Notes: generated by a model not told the origin, from the letters alone. 64,000 nt of DNA from Deltaproteobacteria bacterium (GCA_016219015.1 JACRCL010000005.1:17095-81094); one strand, 5' to 3'; positions 28,544 through 53,055 are shown, counted from the first letter of the stretch. Numbers and translations: made by a program.

Positions 28544-28570
28544 GGGAGGTATGAAGGCCAGGCTTTGAAA

Positions 28571-28990
28571 ATGGAAAATACCATCAGGTCAAAGGACAAC
28601 CCCGGAAAGATACTCGGCCGCCTCGAACAGGAGATACTCGAAGTCCTCTGGGCAAGGGGCGAGGCTACAGGAAAGGCCGTTTTTTCCGAAATAAAAGGGA
28701 CGAGGGAGATCGCCCTCACAACGGTACTTACCGTGCTTGAGCGGCTCTGTAAAAAGGGCTTCGTCAAAAGGACAAAGGGCGACAGCGTCTATATATTCAG
28801 TCCGGCTTACACAAAAGAGGGTTTCGCAAAAGAGGTATCGGGCGAAGTGCTAAGGGGCATCTTCGAGATATCGAGGAGCGGGGCCTGCGCGTCGTTCGTG
28901 GACACCCTCGCTGATACCGACCCTGTCGAGCTCGACAGGCTCTCGGTCCTCATAGAGAAGAAGAAAAAGGAGCTTGAAAGGAAGAGGTAG
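28571..28990 (+). CDS. BlaI/MecI/CopY family repressor
   Basis: LGRLEQEILEVLW, LTTVLTVLERLCKKGFV winged helix. Confidence 0.92.
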   Translation: MENTIRSKDNPGKILGRLEQEILEVLWARGEATGKAVFSEIKGTREIALTTVLTVLERLCKKGFVKRTKGDSVYIFSPAYTKEGFAKEVSGEVLRGIFEISRSGACASFVDTLADTDPVELDRLSVLIEKKKKELERKR

Positions 28991-29913
28991 TGGCTATCCA
29001 CCCCCTGTTAATGGTATTGAGCCTCGCCTTCGGCGTGCTTGCGTGGGGTGCCTATGGCCTGCCCGCCCTCCTTTCCGCGACATATACGATAGCGGACTTC
29101 TGCCAGTCTATATTCATAAGGTGCCTCGGCTACGCCGAGATATTGAAGTTCCTATTCATCTGGTCTGGCGCGTCCATTGTAATACTGGGGCTTGCGTACG
29201 GGGCCTTCCGGAACATGACGCGCCTTTCGAGGGCGAATAAGGCCGTAAAGGGCCTGCCGCTGGGCAAGAGGGCCGGGGCATTGATACTTATAGACGACGC
29301 GTCGAAGATAGCCTTTACCCACGGCCTTATCCGCCCTAAGATATACATCTCAAGGGGCCTGCTGAACGGGCTTGAAAAAGGTGAGCTTAAGGCCGTATTC
29401 CTCCACGAGCTCCATCACAGGAAGAGGTTCGACCCGCTCAGGTTCTTCGTCCTGTCGCTCCTAAAGGACTCCTTTTTCTATCTGCCCGTCATAAAGCACT
29501 TTATCGACAATATCCGCATCATAAAAGAACACGAGGCCGACGACGCGGCGGCCGCCTCGGCCATCGGCAGGCTCAACCTTGCCGGGGCGCTTATAAAGGT
29601 AGCGTCGCATAACAGGTTCGCGTTCATCCCCGCCTCTATCACTGGCGGCAGCCCCGTTGCCGCGAGGATAAGGAGGCTCGTCGAAGGCAAAGAGGTGAAA
29701 CTCCCTTTTCCGGGCCTGAAGGCGGTTGCGTTGAGCGCTGCCGCAGCCGTCTTCCTTACGCTTTCGCTGACCCTGCCCCTTTCCGCGGCCAATATAACTG
29801 CAAAGAAAGAGTGCACGACAAGCCACTGCTCAATGCACATCGACAGGCTCGGGAAGAGCTGCAAGACGCACTGCGACGTACGTTCAGGCCATAGCCACCA
29901 CGACCACCACTGA
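28990..29913 (+). CDS. M56 (BlaR1-like) membrane metalloprotease with Cys/His-rich tail
   Basis: AFTHGLIRPKIYIS, HELHH, EHEAD; TM segments. Confidence 0.88.
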   Translation: MAIHPLLMVLSLAFGVLAWGAYGLPALLSATYTIADFCQSIFIRCLGYAEILKFLFIWSGASIVILGLAYGAFRNMTRLSRANKAVKGLPLGKRAGALILIDDASKIAFTHGLIRPKIYISRGLLNGLEKGELKAVFLHELHHRKRFDPLRFFVLSLLKDSFFYLPVIKHFIDNIRIIKEHEADDAAAASAIGRLNLAGALIKVASHNRFAFIPASITGGSPVAARIRRLVEGKEVKLPFPGLKAVALSAAAAVFLTLSLTLPLSAANITAKKECTTSHCSMHIDRLGKSCKTHCDVRSGHSHHDHH

Positions 29914-29932
29914 AATTTTTTTTGCCCGATAA

Positions 29933-29949
29933 TTCTACCTTATGTAGAA
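29933..29949. promoter_or_regulatory. Second copy of the putative BlaI/CopY operator
   Basis: TTCTAC-cttat-GTAGAA, matching 28521-28537. Confidence 0.7.
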
Positions 29950-29965
29950 CAAAGGAGACTGTAAA

Positions 29966-30361
29966 ATGGGGATAAGAAGGCTTTCAAACGCGCTCGCCGT
30001 CTGCTTTTTCGTCGCCTTGTTTTTAGCGCCCTTGAGCAAGGTCTACGGGGCAGAGCTGGTAAAGACGGATAACGGGATAAAGGCGGCCCTAAAGATAGAC
30101 GCCGCGGGGTCGATGACAGACCTTTACCTCTACGACCTTTCAAAGGCGCTGAGACCCATAAAAGAGGCGAAGGTCTTCGCCACCATCACTTCCCCCGGCG
30201 GGAAGAAGGTTGAAAAGGAGCTTATGGGCATGGAGATGGGCAAGACCTTCTCCTTCATGTCCGCGCTCGACATGAGTGAGAAAGGACGCTATATTTTCGA
30301 TATCAGGGTCGAGGCCGATAAAAAAACCGCCAAATTCAGTTTTATTTATGATAATAGATGA
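29966..30361 (+). CDS. Exported hypothetical protein (possibly YtkA/Ig-like, Met cluster)
   Basis: Signal peptide, beta-rich, LMGMEMG; SD AAGGAG. Confidence 0.7.
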   Translation: MGIRRLSNALAVCFFVALFLAPLSKVYGAELVKTDNGIKAALKIDAAGSMTDLYLYDLSKALRPIKEAKVFATITSPGGKKVEKELMGMEMGKTFSFMSALDMSEKGRYIFDIRVEADKKTAKFSFIYDNR

Positions 30362-30410
30362 GCTTCCTTTCTCTTCTTGACTGTGGACAATAGACCCGAA
30401 GGAGACGCCT

Positions 30411-31733
30411 GTGCGGATAAGTTCTTTAAGGTCCTGGTCCAGGGTATCCCTCCTTGCCATCTTGTCCGTATCCGTTTTGTTTGCGCCAATGCGGGCAAAG
30501 GCCGAGACGATCACCCTTCCGGAGCTTCTGAAAGAGGCGCGCGAGAATAACCCGGAGATAAAGGCCTTTGCCGAGCGGATAAAGGCAAGGGAGGCGCGCG
30601 CGAGCGCGGAAGGCAGGCTCGACGACCCGACGCTGAAGATAGAGATGGAAGACCTTTCCAAAGACCATCCGCTGAACATCTCTCCGGGTAACGCCATGCT
30701 CACCAGGTATACCGTAGCCCAGATGTTCCCGTTCCCCGGCAAACTGCCGCTCAAGGAAAAGATAGCCCTTAAAGAGGCGCGCACCGCCCGCTCGGAGCTC
30801 GACGCCAAGGAGCTTGAAATCGCCTCTATGGTCAAGGAGGCCTTTTTCGACTATTCCTTCATAACGGAGGCGATAAAAAGGACGGTGGAGATAAAAGGGC
30901 TCCTCTCTCAGATGGCGGAGATAGCAGGGACAAGGTACTCTACCGGCCACGTCTCCCAGCAGGATGTGATAAAGGTCAACTTCGAATCCTCCATGATAGA
31001 AAACGACGTCATCACCCTTGAGGCGGAAAAGGGCATAGCCGGGGCTAAGCTCAAATCCTTGCTGAACAGGCCGCAGGACTCCGCGCTCGGCGAGGCCGCC
31101 CCGCTTTCAAAGGAGAAGGCGGCTTTCGACGCCGGCGAGCTTATAAAGACGGCGCTTGAGAAGAACCCGGAGCTGAAGATGCTCGAATCGGACGCCGAGG
31201 CTAACGAACTCGGGGCCGAGCTGGCGAAAAAGGACTATTACCCGGACTTCATGGTAGGCGTGGCCCCCATACAGAGGGACGGCAGGTTCGACAGCTACGA
31301 CCTCATGTTCCAGATCAATATACCGATATGGAGGGGCAAGTACAGGAGCCGGACCGACGAGGCGCGCTCCAACGCCGTCTTCTCAAGGACAAGGCTCCTG
31401 TCCGAGAAGAACACCAAAGGCTTCGAGGTGAAGAGCGCGGCCCTGCAGGTCGAGGCCGCCCGGAGGACGGCCGAGCTTTTCGAGACCAGCCTCATCCCCC
31501 AGGTGGAACTCTCGTTCGAGTCCGCGCTCCGGAACTACTCGTCGGGGAAGACCGATTTCATCGCGCTCCTTGACACCGAAAGGGAATTGAAGAAGGCCCG
31601 TATAGATTATCTGAAGGCCCTCCTCGAATACCGCAAAAAAGTAGCGGCCCTTGAAAAGATAGTCGGCTCGGACTTCACGCCCGCCGCGGCAAAGGCCCCG
31701 GAGCCGGGCCTTGCAATGGGAGGAGCGAGATGA
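30411..31733 (+). CDS. TolC-family outer membrane efflux protein (CusC-like)
   Basis: Signal peptide, two OEP repeats, QMFPFPGK. Confidence 0.9.
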   Translation: MRISSLRSWSRVSLLAILSVSVLFAPMRAKAETITLPELLKEARENNPEIKAFAERIKAREARASAEGRLDDPTLKIEMEDLSKDHPLNISPGNAMLTRYTVAQMFPFPGKLPLKEKIALKEARTARSELDAKELEIASMVKEAFFDYSFITEAIKRTVEIKGLLSQMAEIAGTRYSTGHVSQQDVIKVNFESSMIENDVITLEAEKGIAGAKLKSLLNRPQDSALGEAAPLSKEKAAFDAGELIKTALEKNPELKMLESDAEANELGAELAKKDYYPDFMVGVAPIQRDGRFDSYDLMFQINIPIWRGKYRSRTDEARSNAVFSRTRLLSEKNTKGFEVKSAALQVEAARRTAELFETSLIPQVELSFESALRNYSSGKTDFIALLDTERELKKARIDYLKALLEYRKKVAALEKIVGSDFTPAAAKAPEPGLAMGGAR

Positions 31734-33088
31734 GCCGCGGATTGAAGAACGTCCTGATACTCGTCATAGGCCTCGCCATAGGAGGTACAGCGGTATTCTA
31801 TTACACGAGACCCGCCCCGCCGGAGAAGAAAGAGGAGGCCAAAGCGGAGGCGAAAAAGGAACGGAAGATAATCTACTACCGCAGCCCCATGAACCCGGAG
31901 GCCACCTCCCCTGTTCCCATGAAAGACCCCATGGGCATGGACTATGTCCCTGTCTATGAAGACGGGGCCCAAAGGCAAACGGCCCCCGGCGCCATAACGA
32001 TAAGCCCGGAGAGGATACAGAAGATAGGAGTAAAGTCCGAGGAGGTCAGGAGGAGGCCGCTTACGCGCCTGGTAAGGACAGTCGGCAGGGTCGAGCCGGT
32101 GGAGGACAGGGTCTTTGTCATGAGCGCGAAGGTATCCGGCTGGGTGGAGAAGCTCTACGTCAGCAGGACCGACCAGATGGTCGGCAAGGACGAAAAGCTG
32201 CTTGAGCTATACAGCCCCGACCTCGTATCGGCGCAGGAAGAGTACCTCATCGCGCTAAGGTCTCTGGAGCGGACCAAAGAGAGCCCTTACCCGGATGTGA
32301 GGAAAGGCTCGGAAGACCTCCTTAACGCCGCAAGGCAGCGGCTGAAGTATTGGGGCATATCCGATGACCAGATAAAAAGGCTGGAGGATACGGGCGTTGC
32401 GGCGAGGACCATGTCGATAAGGTCGCCGGCCCAGGGGAGCGTTACCGAGAAGATGGTCATAGAGGGGCAGAAGATAGAGGCCGGGGAGACTCTTTTCAAG
32501 GTGATAGACCACTCAAGGGTCTGGGTCTACGGCGAGATATACGAGTACGAGATGCCTTATATAAAGCTGGGGCAGAAGGCGGCGCTTTCCCCCTCCTATT
32601 CCCCGGCAGAAGTCTACGAGGGGAAGATCGAGCACATATACACGCACCTCGGCTCGATAAGGTACGCCCCGGAGGAAGGGACCGAGATAAGGACGGCAAA
32701 GGTCAGGTTCGAGCTGCCGAACCCGGAACACAGGCTCAAGCTCGGGATGTACCTGAACGTCGAGATAGCCGTTGACGTGGCGAGAGCCGCCATAGCTGTG
32801 CCGGACTCAGCCGTGATCGACACCGGCATAAGGCAGGTCGTGATAGTCGATAAAAGGGACGGCACGTTCGAGCCGAGGGGGGTCGAGGTCGGCGCAAAGG
32901 CCGGCGAGTGGTATCAGATATTGAAGGGCGTAAAGGAAGGCGAGTGGGTGGTCACGTCCGCCAACTTCCTTGTCGATTCCGAGAGTAACCTCCAGGCGGC
33001 TATAAGGGGGCTCGGACACGGACACGCCGACGGCGGCAGCCCTCCGGCCCAGTCTTTCCGGGGAAAACCAGTCCATGAAGGGCATTAG
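31730..33088 (+). CDS. cusB: RND periplasmic adaptor, CusB-like
   Basis: YYRSPMNP...MKDPMGMDYVPVY metal-binding segment; LYSPDL; FLVDSES. Confidence 0.9.
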   Translation: MSRGLKNVLILVIGLAIGGTAVFYYTRPAPPEKKEEAKAEAKKERKIIYYRSPMNPEATSPVPMKDPMGMDYVPVYEDGAQRQTAPGAITISPERIQKIGVKSEEVRRRPLTRLVRTVGRVEPVEDRVFVMSAKVSGWVEKLYVSRTDQMVGKDEKLLELYSPDLVSAQEEYLIALRSLERTKESPYPDVRKGSEDLLNAARQRLKYWGISDDQIKRLEDTGVAARTMSIRSPAQGSVTEKMVIEGQKIEAGETLFKVIDHSRVWVYGEIYEYEMPYIKLGQKAALSPSYSPAEVYEGKIEHIYTHLGSIRYAPEEGTEIRTAKVRFELPNPEHRLKLGMYLNVEIAVDVARAAIAVPDSAVIDTGIRQVVIVDKRDGTFEPRGVEVGAKAGEWYQILKGVKEGEWVVTSANFLVDSESNLQAAIRGLGHGHADGGSPPAQSFRGKPVHEGH

Positions 33089-33107
33089 CGCCCCCCCAAA
33101 TTCAAAA

Positions 33108-33219
33108 AGGCTGCTCAAAAAGCTCCAGATGCCTTCACGAAGCGCGAGGAATGAGACGTACTCACCTTACGTTATAACAAGACGAATACAACAAAGCAGA
33201 TGGACTTTTTCAGCAGCCT
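33108..33219. repeat. Family-A MITE-like repeat
   Basis: Same termini; ends 9 nt before the cusA ATG. Confidence 0.9.
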
Positions 33220-33228
33220 GCTAAGCCA

Positions 33229-36200
33229 ATGCTTAAAAAAATAATCGACATATCAATAGCCAACAAGTTCATAATCCTCCTCATAACGCTCTTCGCCGCG
33301 CTCTGGGGCGTATACGCTATATTCAAGACCCCGGTAGACGCCATCCCCGACCTCTCCGACGTACAGGTGATAATCTACACCGAATACCCCGGGCAGGCCC
33401 CGCAGGTCGTCGAGGACCAGATAACATACCCGCTTACCACGGCCATGCTCGCGGTCCCGAAGGCGAAGGTCGTTAGGGGCTATTCCTTCTTCGGGGTATC
33501 TTTCGTATACGTGATATTCGAGGACGGCACCGACATGTACTGGGCGCGGAGCCGCGTTCTCGAATACCTGAACTTCGCCTCCGGCAAGCTCCCGAGGGGG
33601 GTTGCGCCCTCGCTCGGCCCGGACGCCTCGGGCGTGGGCTGGGTATTCGAGTACACGCTCGAAGGCACGGGTTTGAGCCTCGCGGAGCTGCGCTCCATCC
33701 AGGACTGGTACGTGAGGTACCAGCTCACAAAGGTGCCGGGGGTCTCCGAGGTGGCATCGGTCGGCGGGTTCGTGAAGCAATATCAGGTCAACATCGACCC
33801 GAACAGGCTCATTACCTACAATGTTTCCCTGAGCGACGTCGTGAAGGCCATCGAGATGGGCAACCGCGACGTCGGCGGCAGGGTCGTGGAGATGTCCGAG
33901 CGCGAGTACATGGTAAGGGGGCTCGGCTACATAAAGTCCATCCCCGACATAGAAGACATAGTCTTGAAGGTGGACAGGACCGGCACGCCCATAAAGGTAC
34001 GGGACGTGGCGCGCGTGGAACTGGGCCCCGACGAGAGGAGGGGGTTGGCCGAGCTTAACGGCGACGGCGAGGCCGTCGGCGGTATAGTCGTCATGCGGTT
34101 CGGCGAGAACGCGCTCGACGTGATAAAGGGCGTGAAGGAGAAGCTCAAGGAACTCGAGGCCGGCCTGCCGCCGAATGTAAAGATAGTCCCGGTCTACGAC
34201 AGGAGCGGCCTCATCCACAGGGCCATAGACACATTGAAGGAAAAGCTCGTCGAGGAGTCGATACTCGTCTCAATAGTATGCATCGTCTTCCTCATGCACT
34301 TCAGGAGCGCCCTCGTGGCCATCCTCATGCTCCCGGTGGCGATACTGATATCGTTCATCATCATGTACCTCATGGGGATAAACGCGAACATAATGAGCCT
34401 CGGGGGGATCGCGATAGCCATAGGCGCGATGATAGACGGGGCCATAGTGATGATAGAGAACGCGCACAAGCACCTCGAACGCGACAGAAATACAAAACCC
34501 CACTGGCAGATAATAGCCGAGGCCGCCAAAGAGGTCGGCCCCTCGCTCTTCTTCTCGCTCCTCATAATAACCGCGTCATTCACGCCCATATTCACATTGG
34601 AGGCGCAGGAGGGCAGGCTCTTCAAGCCCCTTGCCTACACCAAGACCTTCTCGATGGGCGCGGCCGCGCTCCTTTCAATAACGCTCGTGCCGGTCCTCAT
34701 GGGGATTTTCATAAGGGGCAGGATAATGCACGAGGAGAAAAACCCCATCACGAGGTTCTCCATCTGGCTCTACAGGCCGGCCATAAACTGGGTCCTACGG
34801 TTCAAGAAGACGACGATACTGCTCGCGATAGCGGCGCTCATAATATCGGTCTATCCGCTATCGAGGCTCGGGAGCGAGTTCATGCCCGCGCTCAACGAAG
34901 GGACTCTTATGTTCATGCCCGTGACCCTGCCGGGCGTGTCGGTAACGAAGGCCGCCGAGATACTCCAGACGCAGGACAGGATAATAAAGGGGTTCCCGGA
35001 GGTCGAAAGCGTCTTCGGCAAGGCCGGCAGGGCCCTTACGGCCACTGACCCGGCGCCTTTCGAGATGTTCGAGACTATCATAAACTTGAAGCCCCAGGCC
35101 CAATGGCGGCCCGGCATGACGATGGAGCGGCTGGTCGATGAGATGAACTCCGCGCTTGAGATGCCGGGGGTCACGAACGCGTGGACGATGCCGATAAAGG
35201 CGCGGACGGACATGCTCTCCACCGGCATAAGGACGCCAGTGGGGATAAAGGTATTCGGCAAGGGGCTCGAAGAGCTCGAACGCGTGGCCCTTGAGGTGGA
35301 ATCAGCCGTAAAGGGAGTCCCCGGCACGGCGAGCGCGTACGCCGAGAGGATAGTCGGAGGCTATTACCTCGATATAAGGATAAAGAGGGACGAGGCCGCG
35401 CGCTACGGCTTGAAGATCGAGGACATACAGGAAGTCGTCATGTCCGCCATAGGCGGCGAGAACATAACGACCACCGTGGAGGGGCTTGAGCGCTACCCGG
35501 TGAACGTCCGGTACAAGAGGGAACTCCGGGACGATATAAACAAGCTCAGAAGGGTCCTCGTGCCCACGATGATGGGCACGCACATACCGCTGGAGCAGGT
35601 GGCGGAGCTTGGCATAAAGATGGGCCCTCCGGGCGTCAGGACCGAGAACGCGCTCCTTACCACGTGGATATACGTCGATGTGAGGGGAAGGGACATCGGG
35701 GGCTACGTAAAGGACGCGAAGGCGGCGGTGGCTCAAAACGTGACCTTCCCGCCGGGCTACTACGCGTCATGGAGCGGGCAGTACGAGTACATGCAGAGGG
35801 CTTACGGGAGGCTTAAGGTGATAGTCCCCCTGACCGTCGGGATAATCTTCCTCCTCCTTTATCTCAACTTCAAGTCGGTGACCGAGTGCCTCATCATCCT
35901 CCTTGCGATACCGTTTTCCCTGATAGGAGCGGGATGGATACTCTATCTGCTCGGGTATAACCTTAGCATCGGGGTCGCCGTGGGATTCCTCGCCCTTGCC
36001 GGGCTCGACGCCGAGATGGGCATAGTCATGCTCATATACCTCGACCACGCCTACAAGGAAAGGAAAACCGAAGGCAGGATGAACTCAATCATGGACCTCC
36101 ATGAGGCGATAATGGATGGGACCGTCATGAGGGTGCGCCCGAAGCTCATGACCGTCATTGCCATCATAGCGGGCCTGCTGCCCATAATGTGGAGCATGGG

Positions 36201-36336
36201 GACGGGGGCGGACGTGATGAAGAGGATAGCCGCGCCCATGGTGGGAGGTATGTTCACCTCGGGCCTGCTTGAGCTTTTGGTACTGCCCGCCATCTACGCG
36301 CTCTGGCGGGGCTGGGAGATGGGGAGGAGAAAATAA
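33229..36336 (+). CDS. cusA: Cu(I)/Ag(I) RND efflux transporter
   Basis: DAIPDLSDVQVI, DMYWARSRVLEYL; Met residues in LMFMP, FEMFET, RTDMLSTG matching the CusA triad. Confidence 0.95.
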   Translation: MLKKIIDISIANKFIILLITLFAALWGVYAIFKTPVDAIPDLSDVQVIIYTEYPGQAPQVVEDQITYPLTTAMLAVPKAKVVRGYSFFGVSFVYVIFEDGTDMYWARSRVLEYLNFASGKLPRGVAPSLGPDASGVGWVFEYTLEGTGLSLAELRSIQDWYVRYQLTKVPGVSEVASVGGFVKQYQVNIDPNRLITYNVSLSDVVKAIEMGNRDVGGRVVEMSEREYMVRGLGYIKSIPDIEDIVLKVDRTGTPIKVRDVARVELGPDERRGLAELNGDGEAVGGIVVMRFGENALDVIKGVKEKLKELEAGLPPNVKIVPVYDRSGLIHRAIDTLKEKLVEESILVSIVCIVFLMHFRSALVAILMLPVAILISFIIMYLMGINANIMSLGGIAIAIGAMIDGAIVMIENAHKHLERDRNTKPHWQIIAEAAKEVGPSLFFSLLIITASFTPIFTLEAQEGRLFKPLAYTKTFSMGAAALLSITLVPVLMGIFIRGRIMHEEKNPITRFSIWLYRPAINWVLRFKKTTILLAIAALIISVYPLSRLGSEFMPALNEGTLMFMPVTLPGVSVTKAAEILQTQDRIIKGFPEVESVFGKAGRALTATDPAPFEMFETIINLKPQAQWRPGMTMERLVDEMNSALEMPGVTNAWTMPIKARTDMLSTGIRTPVGIKVFGKGLEELERVALEVESAVKGVPGTASAYAERIVGGYYLDIRIKRDEAARYGLKIEDIQEVVMSAIGGENITTTVEGLERYPVNVRYKRELRDDINKLRRVLVPTMMGTHIPLEQVAELGIKMGPPGVRTENALLTTWIYVDVRGRDIGGYVKDAKAAVAQNVTFPPGYYASWSGQYEYMQRAYGRLKVIVPLTVGIIFLLLYLNFKSVTECLIILLAIPFSLIGAGWILYLLGYNLSIGVAVGFLALAGLDAEMGIVMLIYLDHAYKERKTEGRMNSIMDLHEAIMDGTVMRVRPKLMTVIAIIAGLLPIMWSMGTGADVMKRIAAPMVGGMFTSGLLELLVLPAIYALWRGWEMGRRK

Positions 36337-43651: not shown

Positions 43652-44224
43652 CTAATCCTGTTTCTTCGGCGTTATGGCGAGCTTCGCCTTGCCGTCTTTT
43701 ATGTACACCCTGAGGTCCACGTCTTTCGTATTGTACTTCTCTTCGACCTTTTTCTTATACTCCTCGACCGTCTTTTCAAGCGTTTTAAGGGTTATGCCCT
43801 CTGTAGGCTCGTTGCAGGCCTTGCGGGCCTCGAGGTATTTCTCGTAGACTGCGTCTATCCCGCCGTCTTTCCGGGGCTTCGCCTCGTCCTCTTTTACGGG
43901 TGCGGGCTTCTTCACGGCATCAGGCGGCCTTAGCGCGTCTTCGTCGCCCTCGGCCTTCCTGGAGAAATCCCCCTCCTCTATGGCGCGGAGCGTCCGCGTC
44001 CAGTACTGCTTGTAGGAGTTGTACCTGGCTACCAGCGCGTTGTACTTGAATTTTATGGAGGTGTTGGTAAGGTTCTTGTTGCTGTACAGGAGTATGAGCC
44101 TCTCCACCTCTTCCCTGAGCTTGGCGGGCTCGCGCTTCAGTACCCTCATGAAGTACTGTTCGTACTCCACTTTGAGCCGCGCGACCTTGGAGTCGAGGAT
44201 ATCTATATCTTCTTTTGCGCCCAT
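43652..44224 (-). CDS. Hypothetical protein resembling the MXAN_5187 C-terminal domain family
   Basis: LKVEYEQYF...REP, W-R-LR-IEEG and KDGKAKL pattern (recognised from memory). Confidence 0.7.
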   Translation of the reverse strand: MGAKEDIDILDSKVARLKVEYEQYFMRVLKREPAKLREEVERLILLYSNKNLTNTSIKFKYNALVARYNSYKQYWTRTLRAIEEGDFSRKAEGDEDALRPPDAVKKPAPVKEDEAKPRKDGGIDAVYEKYLEARKACNEPTEGITLKTLEKTVEEYKKKVEEKYNTKDVDLRVYIKDGKAKLAITPKKQD

Positions 44225-44442
44225 AATATCCCCTGGCAGGACGGAGTGCGGCAAAAGCAGACCGCGAGATCGTAAAAATCCGGCAATTCGAGAGGCTTGG
44301 CCGTCTGGCTGCTCGCCGGCTCACGAAGTGACAAGGCGAGCAATATCAAAGAAAAATTCCTTGCCAGAAAGAACGGAGTTCTGCCATTCACTTCGGACAA
44401 GCCGTTGTTGAAAAGCCATGGATGAGCTTTTTCAACATCCTG

Positions 44443-45633
44443 TTAGAAGATGGCCGTGAGGATCACCCGCGCCTTGTCCTCTCTTTCGTTCGCCCCCACG
44501 GCATGGTCGTCGTCGGAAAGCCTCCTTAGCTCAAGCTGGGCCGAGACATTGCTGAGTATATTATACCTCGCCATAAGGGTCTGTGACCTGGCGCCTTTCT
44601 TCCCTTTTTCCTTTAATTCATCGAACCTTCCGGCGAAGCTTACCCTCGGCAACGGCATATACAATACCTCGGCCAGATAGTCTTCCGCGTCGCCGTTTCC
44701 GCTCCTGTCGGACTTGAAATACCCGGCCGTAAAGGTGAAAGGGCCCGTCCCGGCCTCGGCGGCGATGCCGTATTTATTGTATGAGACGTCCTCAGCCCCG
44801 CTCTTTTCCTTGCCGCCCCGGTATATGAGCCCGAGGTTGTAGTTCTCGTTGAAAGACAAAGAATAGATGGCGTAATAGCCCTTGAGCTTGTCGTCGCCGT
44901 TCACGTCTTCCCTCGATACCCCTATTGAATACCGGTGCGCGAAGGTCCGTTCGTCGCCGTATGAATATGAGCCGTTAAGCTCCACGGCCCTCTGCTCGAA
45001 GGTGAGGATGTTGAGCCTGGACTCCGCCAGATACCTGTTGGTTATGACGGCCCCCGGCGGGTTGAGGAAAGGCAACCCCATGTCCCACTGCCCGGCCCTC
45101 AGGTTAAGAAACCCTTCCCCGTAAGGGCCGGCCAGGTCGTTAATCTGGACAAAGGCCTTGTGTATGGTCGTATCGGAGCCCGTGTCGGTCTGCTCGAACT
45201 TGATTATGCCGAAGGCCGAGACCTTGCCGGTCTTGCCCATCGCGCCCCCGGCTATAAGCTCGGCCTCCTCTATCTTCAAGTCGGACGATTCGGTCCTCAA
45301 GCCGCTCGTCTTAAATTTGTTGTAGATGCCCTCCACCTCCATCTCGAAAGAGGCGGGGATCGACGCCCAGTCCTTCACGTCCTTCCACTCGCCCTCCCCG
45401 GCCAGCCTGTACCCGTTCGCCCTGAAGGTGCGGCCGGTCTCGTTAAGCTTGGGGAAGAGCTTGTGGCAGAAGGTGCAGTCCCTGCCGATCTGCCTTGAGA
45501 ACGCGGGCACGGCCAGGGCGCTGTCCGGGATGATAAAGAAAAACAAGGAGAAAAAAGGGAGGAGGAGTATCCTCGCCAGCCTGGAGTAACGGAGGTGTCT
45601 ATCCGGGGTGTTCACTTTCGGTCTCGTTCCCAC
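44443..45633 (-). CDS. Cyc2-like monoheme cytochrome-porin fusion
   Basis: Signal peptide, then AVPAFSRQIGRDCTFCH..FPKLN..G..F..NGY; amphipathic beta strands; C-terminal Phe. Confidence 0.8.
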   Translation of the reverse strand: MGTRPKVNTPDRHLRYSRLARILLLPFFSLFFFIIPDSALAVPAFSRQIGRDCTFCHKLFPKLNETGRTFRANGYRLAGEGEWKDVKDWASIPASFEMEVEGIYNKFKTSGLRTESSDLKIEEAELIAGGAMGKTGKVSAFGIIKFEQTDTGSDTTIHKAFVQINDLAGPYGEGFLNLRAGQWDMGLPFLNPPGAVITNRYLAESRLNILTFEQRAVELNGSYSYGDERTFAHRYSIGVSREDVNGDDKLKGYYAIYSLSFNENYNLGLIYRGGKEKSGAEDVSYNKYGIAAEAGTGPFTFTAGYFKSDRSGNGDAEDYLAEVLYMPLPRVSFAGRFDELKEKGKKGARSQTLMARYNILSNVSAQLELRRLSDDDHAVGANEREDKARVILTAIF

Positions 45634-45651
45634 CTAAAGCTCCTTTCAGCG

Positions 45652-46677
45652 TCAATCCGAAACCTTAATGGCCTTCACGTCCGCGTCCGTCCCGAGCCCG
45701 ATGGTAAAGGGGAAAGAGACGTAGTGCTTCCTTTTGGCCGCGCCGTCCTCGTGTATCGCCATGCCCGCGGAGACCGCCTCTCCGTCGCTTACGGATATGT
45801 CATACGGGTCCTTTGTCTTGAGCCTTATCTTGAATACCGCCGTGTACCTGCCGCCCGCCCACTCCCCGGAGGCCTCGGGCGCGGCCCCGTCCTCCCACCG
45901 CCTGTCGTCGAATATCCAGCCGTTGTATGGCGTGGAGGCCTTTTCGCCAAGCTCCACGGACCTCAGGTCGATCCTGCCGCCCTCCTTGAGCTTCTTTGAA
46001 AGCTCTTTCTCGCTTTTGAACTCGTTCCAGGACGTCTTCGCGTAAAAGGCGTAGAGCCTGACGTCGTCCCTCCCGAGGGCCTTATAAAAAGGGGTCGACT
46101 CGACCTCTTTCTTCGAGGGGGTAGAGGGCATCGTGTTCAGGTCGTTGTGGCAGGCTATGAAGCAGCCGTATTTGCGGAAGTAGAGGTCGGATTTATTGAG
46201 CTGTATGGAGGCCCTGTCGGGTATCGCGGAAGGGGACTTCTTCTGGTTCCAGCCCGCGCCCTTCGACTCCCATTCGGCCCTTATGTAGAGGTAATCCGCG
46301 TCGTACGCGGCCTGGACCTTAGCGGTTATGACGCCTTTTCTTCCCGGCAGGGGCTCCGGCTCGAACGGGTTATGCGAGCGCTTCATCTTTACCGTGCCGG
46401 CGGCTATCTCGTCGGCCTTCAAGTCGAGCTCTCCTTCCTTGCTCATGTGGCAGTGCCTGCATTCCTTCCTGCCCTGCTTTATCTCCCTGCCCCCGAGCCT
46501 GTGGTCTTCGCTCGTGAGGAACTCCCACGAGGTGACGCCGGGGTAGAAGAGCGTAAGCCTGGAGGCCTCGGCCTTTGACCAGTTTATCTCTTTTGAGTGG
46601 CTGTTAACGGGGATGAGAATCAGAGCGAGGGCGGCAGCCGGCAGGAAAATCGACCTGAACACGCATAGCGAGCGCAT
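45652..46677 (-). CDS. NirB/c552-like periplasmic cytochrome c (EB_dh/DOMON-like)
   Basis: Signal peptide, WSK..LFYPG..SWEF..DH, CRHCH, GCFIACH, KHYVSFP; start set at MRSLC. Confidence 0.78.
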   Translation of the reverse strand: MRSLCVFRSIFLPAAALALILIPVNSHSKEINWSKAEASRLTLFYPGVTSWEFLTSEDHRLGGREIKQGRKECRHCHMSKEGELDLKADEIAAGTVKMKRSHNPFEPEPLPGRKGVITAKVQAAYDADYLYIRAEWESKGAGWNQKKSPSAIPDRASIQLNKSDLYFRKYGCFIACHNDLNTMPSTPSKKEVESTPFYKALGRDDVRLYAFYAKTSWNEFKSEKELSKKLKEGGRIDLRSVELGEKASTPYNGWIFDDRRWEDGAAPEASGEWAGGRYTAVFKIRLKTKDPYDISVSDGEAVSAGMAIHEDGAAKRKHYVSFPFTIGLGTDADVKAIKVSD

Positions 46678-46828
46678 GAACGAGCGAATCGAAATTTTTT
46701 CCTTATGTGTCGAAGATTCCCCGCAGCAAGCTGCGGGGAGATTCAATCCAATCATAACTCCTCCTTGTCGGGACTTGAAGGGTTGGAAAAGAATTATGGA
46801 GGTCAAGCCCGGTCACGGCCCCTCCCGC

Positions 46829-49021
46829 TTAAGCCTTGAAGCTGCCGACGGTATTTCTTAATGTATCGGCCTGTTTATTCATTTCCTTTACGGTTTTTTC
46901 GAGCCTTACGGCGAGCGCCGCGTTGTCCTCGGCGGCCTTTTTGACCGTCTCCACGGCCGCCACTATCCTCTTCGAGAACTTCATCTGCTCGGAGGTGGCC
47001 CCGGCCACCCTCTGGATCTTGCCGACGACCTTGAAAATGGCCTCCGAGACGTGCTTGCTCTCCCGAGACTGCTCGATGGTGGAGAGCTTGACCTTCTCCA
47101 TGAACTCCTTCATCTGGACGGTGTCTTTCAATATCTCTTTCGCGGCCGTGGACTGCTCGTTGGCGGCGTTCTTGATGTCGCCGACCATCTGGCTTATGAC
47201 CTGCGCCACGTTCGATATCTGCCCTGCCCCCTTGGTCTGCTCGATCGTCGCCTTCTCTATCATCTTCGCCATTTCGAAGGACCTCCGGGCCGAATCGAGT
47301 ATCTTCGTGAGGGCCTCCTGGGCGTCCCTGGACAGCCTCACGCCGTCCTCCACGGTGCCGGAGCTCCTCTGCATCGATTCCACGGCGAAGGCCACCTCGC
47401 TCTGGACCTGGCTTATGAGCTCCGCTATCTCCTTCGTGGAAGAGGTGGTCTTGGTGGCGAGGTCCTTTACCTGCCGGGCCACGACGGCGAAGCCCTTGCC
47501 GTGCTCCCCGGCCTGGGCCGCCAGTATGGTGGCGTTCAATGCGAGCAGGTGGGTGGTGTCGGCTATGTCGTTTATGACGGTAAGTATGCTCCCTATCTCC
47601 TTCGACCTCTCGCCCAGCCTGTTGACCACGAGGGCCGTGGAAGCCACCTCCTGGTTTATCTTCTCCATCCCCTCCTTGGTCTTCACGACCGAGGCCATGC
47701 CGAGGTCCTCGGCGTCCTCGCGGACCTTCTCCGCCAGCTCGGCCTGCGACCTCGAGTAATTCTCGACGTCCTTGACGTTCGAGCCTATCTCGATTATCGA
47801 GGAGACGACCTCCTCGGTCTTTTTAAAGAGCTCGTCCACGTGGGAGGCGACCTGGTTTATCGATATCGCCATCTCGTTTATGGAGGACGTGGTCGAGGAG
47901 GCGGAGTAGAAGAGCTTCTCTATGTTGACCTTCACCTCGTCAACGGACGAGGACATGGCGCGGGCGGAACCCGAGACCTCGATGGATGAGCCGTTCAGGG
48001 CCTCGGCCTCCTCGGCGACGGTCTTTATCGACGCGTCCATCTCCTTTATGGAGGTGGACGTGTCCTCCGAGGCCTGGAGCTGCTTGTGGACCGCCTCGAC
48101 TATCTCCTTCGACGACGCCTCTATCTCCTTGGAGGCGGTGGTGACCTCCCTGGATATGCCGAATATCTCCTTTACCATGTGCTGCATGCCCTCGACGAAC
48201 TTGTTGAACCACTTGCCGAGCAGGCCAATCTCGTCGTTGGAGCTTATCTCGAGCCTCTTGGTGAGGTCGCCCTTGCCCTCGGCTATGGCCTTGAGCATGT
48301 CTACCGTCCTGTCCACCGGCCGTATGACGACCGCCGTGACGAGCAGGCCCAGCAGCACGGAAGTGGCGGCCACCGTAAGCACCCCGTAGAGTATCCACCT
48401 GTCCCTCGAGCGCCCGAGAAGGCCGTACATCTCGTCGAGCGACGTCGATATCATCAACACGCCCCTCGCGGTCTCCTCGTGCGAGTGGCAGGAGCTGCAC
48501 TTGGGCCGCGCCAGTATGGGGACGAGGTAGGTGAACAGGCTCTTTTCACCGTCCTTCTCTATGTAATAGACCGCCTCCTTCTTCCCCTTCTTGAAGTTCT
48601 GCAGAGCCTTCTTGAACTCGTTTATCTGGATGCCCTGGGCTACGTTATTGAGGTTGTTCGGGTGGTCGACGGTCCACTCGGGCTTTATCTCGCCGAACTC
48701 GGCCTTGACCGCGTTCAGGGTCTTGTAGTCCTTGAACGCCTCCTCCACCCCGTTGCCCCTTATTATCTGGACCCTCTCGACGTTCTTTATGGTCTTCAAG
48801 CCCTCGATGAGGAAGCGGGGCATGTCGGCCCTCTCGTCAAGCATGTCCTTGTAGATGGTATGGAGGATAGGCTGCGCCATCAGCTCGCTCGCCTTCATCC
48901 TTTCGCGCAGCAGGCTCTTCTCCTCCTCCTTTATGACGAGGAAGATAATGGCGCCGAAGCCGACGAGCGTAAGCCCAATCGTTAAGTTGAGTATCTTTGC
49001 CTTTAAGCCTTGACGGAACAT
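46829..49021 (-). CDS. Methyl-accepting chemotaxis protein with c-type heme sensor domain
   Basis: TM, periplasmic domain with CSSCH, TM, HAMP, LLALNATILAAQAGEHGKGFAVVA. Confidence 0.92.
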   Translation of the reverse strand: MFRQGLKAKILNLTIGLTLVGFGAIIFLVIKEEEKSLLRERMKASELMAQPILHTIYKDMLDERADMPRFLIEGLKTIKNVERVQIIRGNGVEEAFKDYKTLNAVKAEFGEIKPEWTVDHPNNLNNVAQGIQINEFKKALQNFKKGKKEAVYYIEKDGEKSLFTYLVPILARPKCSSCHSHEETARGVLMISTSLDEMYGLLGRSRDRWILYGVLTVAATSVLLGLLVTAVVIRPVDRTVDMLKAIAEGKGDLTKRLEISSNDEIGLLGKWFNKFVEGMQHMVKEIFGISREVTTASKEIEASSKEIVEAVHKQLQASEDTSTSIKEMDASIKTVAEEAEALNGSSIEVSGSARAMSSSVDEVKVNIEKLFYSASSTTSSINEMAISINQVASHVDELFKKTEEVVSSIIEIGSNVKDVENYSRSQAELAEKVREDAEDLGMASVVKTKEGMEKINQEVASTALVVNRLGERSKEIGSILTVINDIADTTHLLALNATILAAQAGEHGKGFAVVARQVKDLATKTTSSTKEIAELISQVQSEVAFAVESMQRSSGTVEDGVRLSRDAQEALTKILDSARRSFEMAKMIEKATIEQTKGAGQISNVAQVISQMVGDIKNAANEQSTAAKEILKDTVQMKEFMEKVKLSTIEQSRESKHVSEAIFKVVGKIQRVAGATSEQMKFSKRIVAAVETVKKAAEDNAALAVRLEKTVKEMNKQADTLRNTVGSFKA

Positions 49022-49300: not shown

Positions 49301-49438
49301 GGAAAATAGTATGCCGACGGGTATTATAATATTTCTAAAGTTGGATTGTATTAAAAAGCCGCTTGCCGTGTCAATATAAAAGAGCCTTCAAGGAAAGACT
49401 CCTTTCCCGGGCCGTAAGACCTGAGGAAGACTGATTAT

Positions 49439-49751: not shown

Positions 49752-50054
49752 CTACTTCCTCTTCTTCTTCGCTGGGGCCTTGGCGGGGGTCTTTGCGGCG
49801 GGTTTCTTGGCCCGCGCCTCAAGCTCCTTCTTCGCGGCGTCCCTCTCGGCCGTAAGGCTCGTCACCTGGTTCTTGAGGTCCTCGACTTCCTTCTGTATCG
49901 TCGCTACCTGGTTCTTAAGGTTGTTGTTCTCCTCCGTAAGGGTGGAGATCTGCCCCTTTAGCTGTTCGTTCTCCTGCTTGAGCTGCTGGCCGCAGCCCGC
50001 CACCAATAGCAGGGCCGCAAATACCATTCCGAGTAAACCGAGCTTCTTCCTCAT
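49752..50054 (-). CDS. Small coiled-coil lipoprotein with Lys/Ala/Pro tail
   Basis: Lipobox LVAG-C, heptad repeats, ends PAKKKRK; SD AAGGAG; alternative start 50060. Confidence 0.85.
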   Translation of the reverse strand: MRKKLGLLGMVFAALLLVAGCGQQLKQENEQLKGQISTLTEENNNLKNQVATIQKEVEDLKNQVTSLTAERDAAKKELEARAKKPAAKTPAKAPAKKKRK

Positions 50055-50159
50055 TTCCATACTCTCCTTACTGTTTTTTTAAAGCAAGACCGAAATCCAA
50101 AAATAGAACGCCCGGCCACGATTGGCGGGCGGCACGCAAAAGCCGGAAGGTGAGAGAGA

Positions 50160-50188
50160 ATTTTAGAAAAAACGGAAATCCATGTCAA
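50160..50188 (-). promoter_or_regulatory. sigma70 promoter
   Basis: TTGACA-17 nt-TAAAAT on the minus strand. Confidence 0.7.
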
Positions 50189-50196
50189 GATAAAAA

Positions 50197-51618
50197 TCAA
50201 CCCTGTTCCTGGGGGCCCCTTTGCCTCGCCTGCGGCGTCCTCGGCGCGGAGTACGACTGTTTGTCTATCCCGAACTTGTTGAGCCTGTACTGGAGCGTCC
50301 TGTAGCTCATGCCGAGCAGGGCCGCCGCCTTTCCGAGCGAACCGTTGGACTTGGTCATGGCCTTTACCAGCATCTCTTTCTCGAACTCCTCGAAGGATAT
50401 GCCCTCGTCCGGGAGCTGGAAGTCCGTGTTCCCGAGCGTTATGGGCCTTGTCATCACCTCCATCGGCAGGGCGTCGGCCCCGATTACCTCTCCGTCGCTC
50501 AGGAGCACGGCCCTCTCGATGGCCGCCTCGAGCTGGCGGACGTTGCCCGGCCAGTAGTAGTTGATAAGGATGTTCATCGCCTCGTCGGACACGCCCTTTA
50601 TGTTCTTCTCCAGCGGCTCCGCGTACCTTTTTATGAAAAAGGCGACGAGCTCGGGTATGTCGCTCTTCCTGTCGCGCAGCGGCGGTATCTTGAAGGCGAT
50701 GACGTTCAGCCTGTAGAAGAGGTCCTCCCGGAAGCTCCCCTTCCTTATCTCCACGTCGAGGTCCTTGTTGGTGGCGGCTATTATCCTGACGTTCACCTTT
50801 ACGCTCAGGCTGCCGCCGAGCCGCCTTATCTCCCTCTCCTGTATGACGCGCAGGAGCTTGGACTGGAGGGCCAGGCTCATGTCCCCTATCTCGTCTAAGA
50901 ATATCGTCCCGTCCTGCGCGGCCTCAAATAGCCCCGTGTTCCTCGCGTACGCGCCGGTGAACGCGCCCTTCTCGTACCCGAAAAGCTCGGTCTCCAGCAG
51001 CGTCTCCGGTATCGCCGCGCAGTTGATGGCCAAAAAGGACTTGCCCGAGCGGGGGCTCGAGTAGTGCAGGGCCCTGGCGATGAGCTCCTTTCCCGTCCCG
51101 CTCTCCCCGTATATGAGGACGGTGGCCGACGAGCCGGAGACCTTCTTTATCATCCTGAATATCTCCCTCATCTTGCTGTCGGTCCCGATTATGCCCTCCG
51201 GCCTGAATTTTTTTTCGAGCTGCTGCCTGAGCCTTATGTTCTCGCTCATGAGCCTGGACTTCTCGACCGCCTTCTTGGCCGTGATGAGGAGCTTCTCCCT
51301 GTCGAGCGGCTTTGTGAGGTAATCGAACGCCCCGTCCCTTATCGCCTCCACCGCCGAATCTATCGACCCGTGCGCCGTCACTATCACGATGCTTATGCTC
51401 GGCTTTTCCCTGTTTATCTGCTTCAATAGCTCGTGGCCGTCGACGCCCGGCATCTTGAGGTCGCTGAAGACCAGGTCGAAGTTGTTCTTCTGTATGGCCG
51501 AGAGGGCCTCCTGCGCCCCGGTGGCCACGCCTACGTCGAAGCCCTCGGACTCGAGTATCGTCTTCAATATCTCTCTCTGGCCTTTTTCGTCGTCTACGAC
51601 GAGTACCGTGCCTTCCAT
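50197..51618 (-). CDS. sigma54-dependent NtrC-family response regulator
   Basis: REC domain, GESGTGKE, GAFTGA, Fis HTH. Confidence 0.96.
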   Translation of the reverse strand: MEGTVLVVDDEKGQREILKTILESEGFDVGVATGAQEALSAIQKNNFDLVFSDLKMPGVDGHELLKQINREKPSISIVIVTAHGSIDSAVEAIRDGAFDYLTKPLDREKLLITAKKAVEKSRLMSENIRLRQQLEKKFRPEGIIGTDSKMREIFRMIKKVSGSSATVLIYGESGTGKELIARALHYSSPRSGKSFLAINCAAIPETLLETELFGYEKGAFTGAYARNTGLFEAAQDGTIFLDEIGDMSLALQSKLLRVIQEREIRRLGGSLSVKVNVRIIAATNKDLDVEIRKGSFREDLFYRLNVIAFKIPPLRDRKSDIPELVAFFIKRYAEPLEKNIKGVSDEAMNILINYYWPGNVRQLEAAIERAVLLSDGEVIGADALPMEVMTRPITLGNTDFQLPDEGISFEEFEKEMLVKAMTKSNGSLGKAAALLGMSYRTLQYRLNKFGIDKQSYSAPRTPQARQRGPQEQG

Positions 51619-53055
51619 CTATACCCCCGGGACCGCGGGCAGGGTCAAGGTCACTGCCGTGCCTTTGCCCTCCGCGCTCGACAGCATTATCCTGCCCCCG
51701 TGCTCCTCCACTATCCTTTTGGTGAGGGCGAGCCCGAGCCCTATGCCAATCTCCTTCGTGGTGAAGTACGGCTCGAACACCCTGTCCATGTTCCCGGGGG
51801 CTATGCCGCAGCCCGTGTCCTCGACCCTTATCGTTACGGCCCCGTTCACGACCCTGTCCTCGACCGTAAGATGGCCGCCCTCGGGCATGGCCTGTATCGC
51901 GTTAAGGAAGATGTTCAGGAAGCAGGTCTTTATGTGCCTGTAGTCGGCCATGACCGAATAGCGCGCCCCGGAGCTCCTCACCTCCACGCCTATCTTCTGC
52001 TCGGAGCACCTCTCCCCGAGGAGGGCCAGGGTCTCGCCTATTATCGGATCGAGCGAGATGTTCTTGAGGTTAAGGTTCAGGGGCCGGCCGAAGTTCAAGA
52101 AGTTGCTGACCATCCCGTCGAGCCTCTCGATCTCGGATTTCACCCTGGCGATGGTCGAAAGGAAGCTCTCCTTCTTCTCCGGCTCGGAGGGCGCGTGGGC
52201 GACCCTCAGGTGGTCGATGGAGAGGTTTATGAGGTTAAGGGGGTTCCTCACCTCGTGGGCTATCCCGGAGGCGAGAGTGCCTATCTTCGACATGTGCTCG
52301 GCCTCCTTGAGCTTCGACTGCAGCGCCCTGTTCTCATTGAGCTTCATCACCATGTCGTTGAAGTTCTGCGTGAGCCTGCCTATCTCGTCGTGCCCCTGCA
52401 CAATAAGGCTTACGGACAGGTCCCCCCCGGCCACCCTCTGCGCCGCTTGCGCTATCGACTGTATCGGCTCCGTGTATTTCTTGGACAGGTACATGGCCAC
52501 GAGTATGCCTATCGAGAATATGGCGAGGGTGGCCAGGAGGCGGTTACGGTGGTTGGCGCGGGCTATCGACTCGAAGTCCTCGAACTGCGTTTCTATGTGT
52601 ATGTAGCCGAGCCGCTCCTTGCCCATGACGACCGGCAGGAGCATGTCGTACTGCTTCTGGCCGCCCGTCGTGGTCATGTACTCGGTCACGTTGCCGATGT
52701 TCTTTACGCTTTCGCCCTTTATGAAGAGCTTTTTCCCTATGAGGCGGGGGTTCGAGCTCGCTATGACGTCCCTGGTGTTGTTTATGACGGATATCTCCTT
52801 GATCCCTTTTTTCTTTACGCTCATGAGGCTTTTTAACTTGTCGAGCCCCTCGCCCTCGCTGGTCTTGGATATCTGCTCGATGCTCACCTGTATGGCGGTG
52901 GACAGCTCCTCCGTATGGTGCCTGACCTCCTCTATCAGGTCCTTCTCCGCCCTCGCGTAGAGTATGAGGAGGAAGGCTATCGACAGAAAGCAGAGCGATA
53001 CCATCATGAAAAGGAGCTTTGTCTTAAGGTTCAGGTCGGAAAGGATCGTATGCAT
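51619..53055 (-). CDS. Membrane sensor histidine kinase (HAMP)
   Basis: Two TM, HAMP, AHEVRNPL, N/G1/F/G2 boxes. Confidence 0.95.
   Translation of the reverse strand: MHTILSDLNLKTKLLFMMVSLCFLSIAFLLILYARAEKDLIEEVRHHTEELSTAIQVSIEQISKTSEGEGLDKLKSLMSVKKKGIKEISVINNTRDVIASSNPRLIGKKLFIKGESVKNIGNVTEYMTTTGGQKQYDMLLPVVMGKERLGYIHIETQFEDFESIARANHRNRLLATLAIFSIGILVAMYLSKKYTEPIQSIAQAAQRVAGGDLSVSLIVQGHDEIGRLTQNFNDMVMKLNENRALQSKLKEAEHMSKIGTLASGIAHEVRNPLNLINLSIDHLRVAHAPSEPEKKESFLSTIARVKSEIERLDGMVSNFLNFGRPLNLNLKNISLDPIIGETLALLGERCSEQKIGVEVRSSGARYSVMADYRHIKTCFLNIFLNAIQAMPEGGHLTVEDRVVNGAVTIRVEDTGCGIAPGNMDRVFEPYFTTKEIGIGLGLALTKRIVEEHGGRIMLSSAEGKGTAVTLTLPAVPGV

Follow-up and report, generated by a model that had tools for sequence, protein, structure and literature searches.

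Three consecutive genes at positions 44443 to 49021 of a 64-kb stretch of DNA (64,000 nucleotides (nt), hereafter the window) from an uncultured groundwater bacterium of the Deltaproteobacteria encode a predicted haem-c chemoreceptor, a periplasmic dihaem cytochrome and a Cyc2-like haem-porin, and these genes were gained or lost together across 41 related genomes. Because the three genes are kept or lost together in the relatives, the cell probably reads the redox state outside and swims accordingly, and we tentatively regard the trio as a redox-sensing and taxis unit wired to the cell exterior. In the genome holding the window (G000; 2.24 Mb, 96.6% complete) the genes and the spacer between the last two are laid out as follows:

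46829..49021, minus strand: chemoreceptor (methyl-accepting chemotaxis protein, MCP) of 730 amino acids (aa), with two transmembrane (TM) segments, a periplasmic haem-c sensor, HAMP and an MCP signalling domain
45652..46755, minus strand: predicted periplasmic dihaem cytochrome c with an EB_dh / DOMON-like beta-sandwich (NirB-like); alternative start at 46677, longest open reading frame (ORF) from 46806
45634..45651, minus strand: 18-nt spacer between the cytochrome and porin genes, containing the Shine-Dalgarno sequence AAGGAG, by direct sequence reading
44443..45633, minus strand: Cyc2-like monohaem cytochrome fused to a predicted 16-strand outer-membrane porin, 396 aa, with a C-terminal Phe

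All three ORFs were confirmed on the minus strand, co-oriented and each with a conserved haem-c motif, as had been proposed in the original prediction, which was made from the sequence alone. The haem motifs are not due to chance, since they are invariant across homologues that are 40-80% identical overall. The 18-bp distance noted between the last two genes was also borne out, and the AAGGAG within it sits 6 nt ahead of the GTG start codon of the porin gene. The spacing of the genes is operon-like: a pattern scan detected no minus-strand terminator-like site between the receptor and cytochrome genes, and these two are separated by about 17 nt in one relative (G007). The scan of ORFs and domains in the window revealed no oxidase, bc complex or other energy-conserving gene within the three-gene unit.

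The synteny in relatives, which had been put forward as a check on the prediction, was clearly recovered. The cytochrome gene adjoined the porin gene in 17 of 18 loci of relatives, and the receptor gene lay upstream in 16 of the 18. A scan of species-representative genomes placed the porin family in 27 loci, found only in uncultured 'Deltaproteobacteria/Thermodesulfobacteriota' metagenome-assembled genomes, plus six distant Gemmatimonadales with an N-terminal match only; the cytochrome gene was present in 23 of these 27 loci and the receptor gene in 20, several of them being cut by contig ends, and the set largely repeats the same genomes as the 18 loci. Among the 41 genomes (G000 included), 21 encoded the porin orthologue, 22 the cytochrome and 21 the receptor orthologue, the last of these defined by a sensor at least 62% identical; a distant receptor paralogue with a sensor mostly 38-52% identical occurred in most of the 41. 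The cytochrome was present in all 21 genomes with the receptor orthologue. When presence was mapped on an AtpA-AtpG-AtpD tree of 39 genomes (G001 and G017, with no atpD match, are omitted), the minimum number of changes was 10 (porin), 9 (cytochrome) and 8 (receptor). Six independent sister pairs on supported branches differed in the cytochrome, and the receptor differed in the same direction in five to six of them and in the opposite direction in none (p 0.03-0.06). The porin followed the cytochrome in five to six of the six pairs, a single opposite pair being found in 1 of 200 random pairings.

One genome (G031) encoded the cytochrome and porin without the receptor orthologue, and it was the sole such case. 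The divergent neighbour of the pair in this genome, a histidine kinase of the PAS type, is accompanied by two response regulators, and the periplasmic part of the kinase matched the haem region of the receptor (31% over 90 aa, E = 9e-6) and contained CASCH. Judged by this similarity, the receptor is replaced there by a histidine kinase with the same kind of haem sensor, i.e., the output domain is swapped. The G017 locus (L090:2440-6351) looks like a decaying copy of the three-gene unit, as its receptor gene is broken into two ORFs and only about 104 porin residues are left beside an intact cytochrome gene; a complete porin gene stands alone on a different contig of this genome (L027). The sensory reading fits the data best because the receptor heads the operon, is its best-conserved member and is never found without the cytochrome, because its output domain can be swapped and because the unit lacks a linked energy-conserving partner.

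The identification of the first gene product as an MCP with a periplasmic CSSCH held up. The MCPsignal (130.1 bits) and HAMP (41.4 bits) domains scored above the Pfam cut-offs, and CSSCH (aa 175-179, nt 48485-48499) is located just ahead of the second membrane segment; it is assigned to the periplasm because it is positioned between two hydrophobic segments. Residues C175, C178, H179, M48 and M60 were invariant in 18 distinct orthologous sensor domains that are 62-85% identical. The sensor scored below the Pfam cut-offs for Tll0287-like (PF11845, 21.1 bits, cut-off 24.1) and Mcp40H-20_sensor (PF21563, 20.0 bits, cut-off 27), and its best matches among solved structures were weak and covered 44 residues over the haem motif (3B47, E = 0.0034; 3B42, E = 0.16). 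The fitting topology, together with the weak sequence match, suggests a periplasmic haem-c sensor of the GSU0582/GSU0935 type. The receptor shares the TM-sensor-CXXCH-TM2-HAMP-MCP topology of Geobacter sulfurreducens GSU0582 and GSU0935 (PDB 3B47 and 3B42) and of haem-c Cache (DUF3365/Tll0287) sensors, whereas its sequence likeness to them is weak (best E = 0.0034) and its Pfam scores are sub-cut-off. It further differs in its genetic linkage to a pair of cytochromes in the outer membrane and periplasm, no such partner being named for the Geobacter receptors in the consulted portion of a 2021 review; the same portion describes the physiological signals of these haem-c sensor systems as imprecisely understood.

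The porin starts with a hydrophobic leader that ends in ..SALA and is followed by VPAFSRQ (the signal peptide was judged by eye). The motif AVPAFSRQIGRDCTFCH spans aa 41-57 (nt 45463-45513); CTFCH (aa 53-57) is the one CXXCH in the ORF, and PKL (aa 61-63, nt 45445-45453) lies four residues past it (H57-K-L-F-P61-K-L63). P43, F45, C53, C56, H57 and L63 were invariant in 40 aligned sequences, and P61 was nearly so. The protein matched Pfam Porin_4 with 28.6 bits. Its AlphaFold2 (AF2) model, built with 40 homologues (pLDDT 85, pTM 0.81), comprises a short helical N-terminal part and 16 strands, and Foldseek retrieved the 16-strand general porins Omp38, PorB, Omp32, OprP (2O4V) and OprO (4RJW) with E values of 2e-12 to 2.4e-10. 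The barrel fold proposed from the sequence is corroborated by the model and its structural matches. OprO and OprP are also the templates reported for Cyc2 (PMC8406198).

According to the consulted text of Keffer et al. 2021 (PMC8406198), Cyc2 is defined by a signal peptide, one CXXCH, the motif AXPXFAR[Q/K][T/Y], PXL four residues past the haem site and a 16-strand porin, and the published screen uses PXFAR[Q/K][T/Y] and a length of at least 365 aa. The window porin agrees with this definition in its signal peptide and single CXXCH near the mature N-terminus, PXL spacing, 16 predicted strands and length of 396 aa, and fails the motif screen at two positions, reading AVPAFSRQI, where A is replaced by S and T/Y by I. 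Across 17 orthologous loci and the window-type rows, the family residue at the T/Y position was V or I, except for L in one (P0242) and T in two lone-porin sequences (L027 and P0241), and was never Y. In most relatives there is a further gene, of 408-458 aa (20 were retrieved), with the canonical AVPAFARQT...CxxCH...FPxLN, and the spacing from motif to CXXCH is equal in the two types. The porin family and these canonical-motif paralogues are homologous over their full length, since their hhalign match (99.3% probability, E = 1.8e-20) spans 350 columns. A profile of both families recovered 4876 cluster representatives at E <= 0.001, of which 217 also passed E <= 1e-30, and an A-x-P-x-F-A-R-Q-type motif was present in most of the best 150 matches. 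In a FastTree phylogeny of 143 rows, from which rows shorter than 340 aa or lacking the motif were omitted, all 20 rows with the window-type motif fell inside one set of 22 (SH-like 96). As the protein fails the motif screen and belongs to a separate clade, we classify it by sequence as Cyc2-like, a member of a distinct clade of the superfamily rather than Cyc2 proper. The earlier assignment to Cyc2 therefore stands as regards architecture (monohaem motif and 16-strand porin) and falls as regards strict membership.

The porin resembles Cyc2 and Cyt572 (Acidithiobacillus ferrooxidans Cyc2, Mariprofundus Cyc2PV-1 and Leptospirillum Cyt572, as described in the part of PMC8406198 consulted) in having a signal peptide followed by P-x-F-(A/S)-R-(Q/K), one CXXCH, PXL, an OprO/OprP-like barrel and about 400 aa. 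Unlike Cyc2, it reads SRQI (family [SA]R[QRK][VI]GR[DN]) instead of AR[Q/K][T/Y], and it is associated with a dihaem EB_dh cytochrome and a chemoreceptor rather than with rusticyanin/Cyc1 or an oxidase. The MtrCAB, PioAB and MtoAB conduits follow the same logic, an outer-membrane barrel with a haem protein exchanging electrons with a periplasmic carrier, and are not homologous to the porin. In the MtrCAB-type conduits a decahaem cytochrome is threaded through a much larger barrel, whereas the porin has one haem fused to a 16-strand barrel. The canonical-motif gene was read at L037:5097-7378 (G004) and also at L036-L055; it contains AVPAFARQTGMACNTCH, encodes 408-458 aa ending in FAAF and has no cytochrome gene alongside. 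It is followed by a gene for a lipoprotein of about 290-315 aa in the three loci read (L037, L040 and L045), with a PEGA domain in the L037 copy, and L036 has no such neighbour. No Pfam or NCBIfam Cyc2 model matched the canonical-motif paralogues. Besides a Tat molybdopterin oxidoreductase, Fe-S proteins and a rhodanese-like protein, a cluster on contig C6 of G000 (99757-110401) encodes the only NapC/NirT cytochrome of the genome together with a second tetrahaem cytochrome. It also encodes two porins without haem, of 394 and 449 aa, the longer of which faintly matches the Cyc2-like profile (E = 0.0087).

The middle protein had been described as a periplasmic cytochrome with CRHCH and an atypical CFIACH, which agrees with our data: both motifs (CRHCH at 46447-46461; CFIACH, a CX3CH of the form C-F-x-x-C-H, at 46147-46164) were invariant in 35/35 aligned homologues (C73, C76 and H77; C172, C176 and H177), as were M98, K99 and M183. 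The protein scored 82.2 bits against Pfam EB_dh (PF09459, cut-off 33.3). Its AF2 model (pLDDT 79.8) was matched by Foldseek to 2IVF_C (EbdC, E = 1.1e-9) and 7B04_C (NxrC, E = 6.2e-9); a sequence search of solved structures with the cytochrome gave no match. The invariant CX3CH inside the fold and the additional N-terminal CXXCH argue for haem c, not haem b, and the sequence suggests two covalently bound haems c. AAGGAGG precedes the ATG at 46755 and conservation starts near the signal peptide beginning at 46677, and either of these is probably a better start than 46806. The cytochrome belongs to the EB_dh-domain proteins and not to the class I c552 type. Members of the family bear the names 'ethylbenzene dehydrogenase-related', 'Cytochrome c-552' or 'NapC' in source databases. 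The beta-sandwich haem fold with an EB_dh domain is shared with the haem b gamma subunits of type II DMSO-reductase enzymes (EbdC and NxrC) and with FoxC/CbsA of Sulfolobales; in contrast to EbdC and NxrC, the cytochrome gene has no adjacent genes for molybdoenzyme alpha or beta subunits, and its sites are of the haem c rather than the haem b type.

Atlas look-alikes of the cytochrome were EB_dh proteins of about 300-340 aa, mostly from Pseudomonadota, as well as NapC/NirT+EB_dh fusions. A homologue 30% identical to it, in G033, is encoded between a NapC/NirT cytochrome and a d1-domain protein, and is the only one with neighbours of this kind. The gene string at that locus (L091:747-6518) comprises a molybdopterin oxidoreductase (841 aa), NapC/NirT with five CXXCH, the EB_dh cytochrome (336 aa) and the d1-domain protein (416 aa), in a nirT-nirB-like order. 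In the consulted part of PMC13086519, NirB is described as a cytochrome with two haems whose gene lies with that of the tetrahaem NirT downstream of nirS, and fusions of the two (NirTB) are mentioned. Given the EB_dh fold with two haem-c sites, the NapC/NirT+EB_dh look-alikes and the neighbours of the G033 homologue, 'NirB-like' is a reasonable, indirectly supported label for the cytochrome. NirB of nirSTB(M) clusters and fused NirTB are likewise periplasmic, of about 300-340 aa, with two haem-c sites and an EB_dh domain. The window cytochrome differs in that it adjoins neither nirS nor nirT and that its presence does not track d1 genes. A second EB_dh protein of 540 aa, with two class I cytochrome c domains, is encoded on contig C1 of G000 (70434-75077; L093:435-5078). 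Its operon also encodes a monohaem cytochrome (252 aa) and a cytochrome bd subunit I-like protein (612 aa) and may represent a bd-like oxidase with its own haem carriers.

In the sensory scheme, the Cyc2-like haem-porin would trade electrons with a diffusible species outside, most plausibly Fe2+ by analogy with Cyc2, and would hand electrons to the dihaem cytochrome of EB_dh fold in the periplasm. The redox state of this cytochrome, or a ligand that it handles, would then set the state of the covalent haem in the receptor sensor, and the receptor would bias motility via the Che pathways of the cell; which way the electrons flow, which substrate outside is used and that cytochrome and receptor make contact are parts of the scheme that we infer. 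G000 has the signalling machinery, as shown by seven MCP genes and nine CheW-domain matches. The porin-cytochrome pair could also serve respiration by oxidising Fe(II), alongside sensing. A more specific proposal, which we consider unlikely, is that the unit acts as an antenna for outside redox, in which electrons from or to extracellular Fe or other redox species would pass the porin and cytochrome and directly poise the haem of the chemoreceptor (or of the G031 kinase), so that redox potential would be sensed by haem-to-haem transfer and not by ligand binding or metabolic state.

A complex of the porin with the 45652 protein, whose prediction had been suggested earlier, was modelled with ESMFold2 with three haems included. 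The score was 0.47 (runs 0.47, 0.50 and 0.25), above the best control (0.00), the partners had a pLDDT of 88 or more and the runs shared 72% or more of their contacts. In the benchmark, the mark was reached by 116/157 solved complexes and 2/215 mismatched pairs; at scores of 0.60 or below it was reached by 18/157 solved complexes and both mismatches. The model thus exceeds its controls and lends weak support to a porin-cytochrome complex.

Several observations weigh against the sensory unit. A pass of this strength in complex prediction is more often wrong than right unless the complex was likely beforehand. All the compared genomes belong to one order, some absences may be assembly gaps (G037 is 88%, G014 88% and G023 79% complete), and the sign tests of co-loss reach only p ~0.03-0.06. 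Members of genus g7 (G007 and G020, both 100% complete) have the receptor and cytochrome genes, adjacent to each other, without the porin; the persistence of these two after porin loss indicates that the porin is dispensable there, and an obligatory porin-cytochrome pair is not supported. A lone porin copy was found in two species (L064 and L070). Moreover, the receptor may need no protein partner, since haem-c sensors of this kind fused to signalling modules are reported, in the part of PMC12889525 consulted, to behave as NO (nitric oxide) sensors.

The strongest alternative, which we regard as somewhat unlikely, is a respiratory or lithotrophic conduit, in which the porin would oxidise Fe2+ or another outside donor for energy, the cytochrome would pass electrons to a haem-copper oxidase, a bd-like oxidase or NirS, and the receptor would merely be co-regulated to find the substrate. 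The Cyc2 architecture of the porin and its full-length homology to the canonical-motif paralogues are in line with this role. One COX1-family oxidase, a bd-like oxidase, NirS and one NapC/NirT cytochrome are encoded in G000, which has neither a canonical-motif copy nor any other Cyc2-like gene. The invariant Met near both cytochrome haems (M98 and M183) would fit His/Met, higher-potential haems. Over the whole porin alignment, acidic residues account for 13/64 and basic residues for 6/64 of the conserved positions, which would suit a cation. The EbdC-like haem domain also occurs in FoxC of Fe-oxidising Sulfolobales, as described in the consulted part of PMC13741234. However, the unit has no linked gene for an acceptor or for energy conservation, and the member that is best conserved and never without the cytochrome is the chemoreceptor. 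A d1 protein is missing from 13/22 cytochrome-bearing genomes, g7 lost the porin and kept the other two genes, and the function of divergent Cyc2 homologues is treated as uncertain by the authors of PMC8406198 in the sections consulted.

A link to NO or nitrite appears very unlikely. Here, the haem of the receptor would sense NO, the NirB-like cytochrome would serve a cd1 nitrite reductase, as is thought for NirB, and the porin would be an accessory. The gene order of NirB with NirT downstream of nirS (PMC13086519, consulted in part), the position of the G033 homologue, the clusters of NapC/NirT+EB_dh fusions, the NirS encoded in G000 and the NO-sensor behaviour of fused haem-c Cache sensors (PMC12889525, likewise in part) all point in this direction. 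However, d1 genes were present in only 11/41 relatives and absent from 13/22 cytochrome-bearing genomes, several of which are 100% complete, and on this ground NirS was rejected as an obligatory link of the unit. No NapC/NirT or d1 gene was found at the window locus; the NirS and the sole NapC/NirT gene of G000 lie on other contigs, and no nir accessory genes accompany the former. The co-inherited haem-porin would also be left unexplained.

Two further features flank the three genes:

49345..49374, minus strand: sigma-70-like promoter match, TTGACA-18 nt-TACAAT, 11/12 in a consensus scan, a pattern match only
43652..44254, minus strand: MXAN_5187 C-terminal-domain protein, cytoplasmic, 200 aa, the downstream neighbour (NCBIfam NF041621, 69.7 bits)

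The promoter match lies about 320 nt 5' of the receptor gene, the only one of the three with such a match upstream, and is a candidate promoter of the operon. The MXAN_5187-domain gene is found downstream in 15/18 related loci and stays where the porin was lost; in g7, about 70 nt separate it from the cytochrome gene, consistent with a clean loss of the porin. Its membership in the unit is uncertain. That the three genes form no functional unit, their adjacency being a conserved gene order beside the ATP synthase operon within one order, is the least probable explanation: many relatives share the gene order all the way from the two-component system to atpC and all the compared genomes are kin, but the trio was lost together at least six times with the atp genes staying, G030 carries it on another contig, apart from the atp operon and with no MXAN_5187 gene behind it, the cytochrome-porin spacer is only 18 nt and in G031 the sensor was swapped beside the cytochrome-porin pair.

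The trio of a Cyc2-like porin, an EB_dh cytochrome and a haem-c chemoreceptor was not found in the consulted portions of the literature on Cyc2 with ethylbenzene dehydrogenase or methyl-accepting chemotaxis. The operon gives a testable proposal for the function of the numerous Cyc2-like haem-porins beyond a few iron oxidisers, as well as for the natural signals of periplasmic haem-c chemoreceptors. If the antenna proposal were true, one clade of the very large Cyc2-like superfamily would have a sensory role. The operon also cautions against automatically taking a Cyc2-like gene in a metagenome as a marker of iron-oxidising metabolism.

Elsewhere in G000, contigs C12 and C14 carry ORFs of 1055 and 927 aa with 44 and 39 CXXCH, respectively, and C8 a cluster of 4- to 11-haem ORFs. 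The window is otherwise occupied by housekeeping genes, including the ATP synthase operon, the trp operon and a resistance-nodulation-division (RND) efflux system. Upstream of the receptor (49752-53055, minus strand) are the genes of an Lpp-like coiled-coil lipoprotein (102 aa) and of a sigma-54-type NtrC regulator with a HAMP histidine kinase; the lipoprotein gene keeps its place in the gene order of at least five relatives, and a match to the regulator-kinase pair lies upstream in two (L021 and L090). On the plus strand, at 28565-36336, a BlaI/BlaR1-like repressor and sensor-protease are followed by an outer-membrane factor, a CusB/HlyD-type adaptor and an AcrB-family pump, which together make up a regulated RND efflux system.

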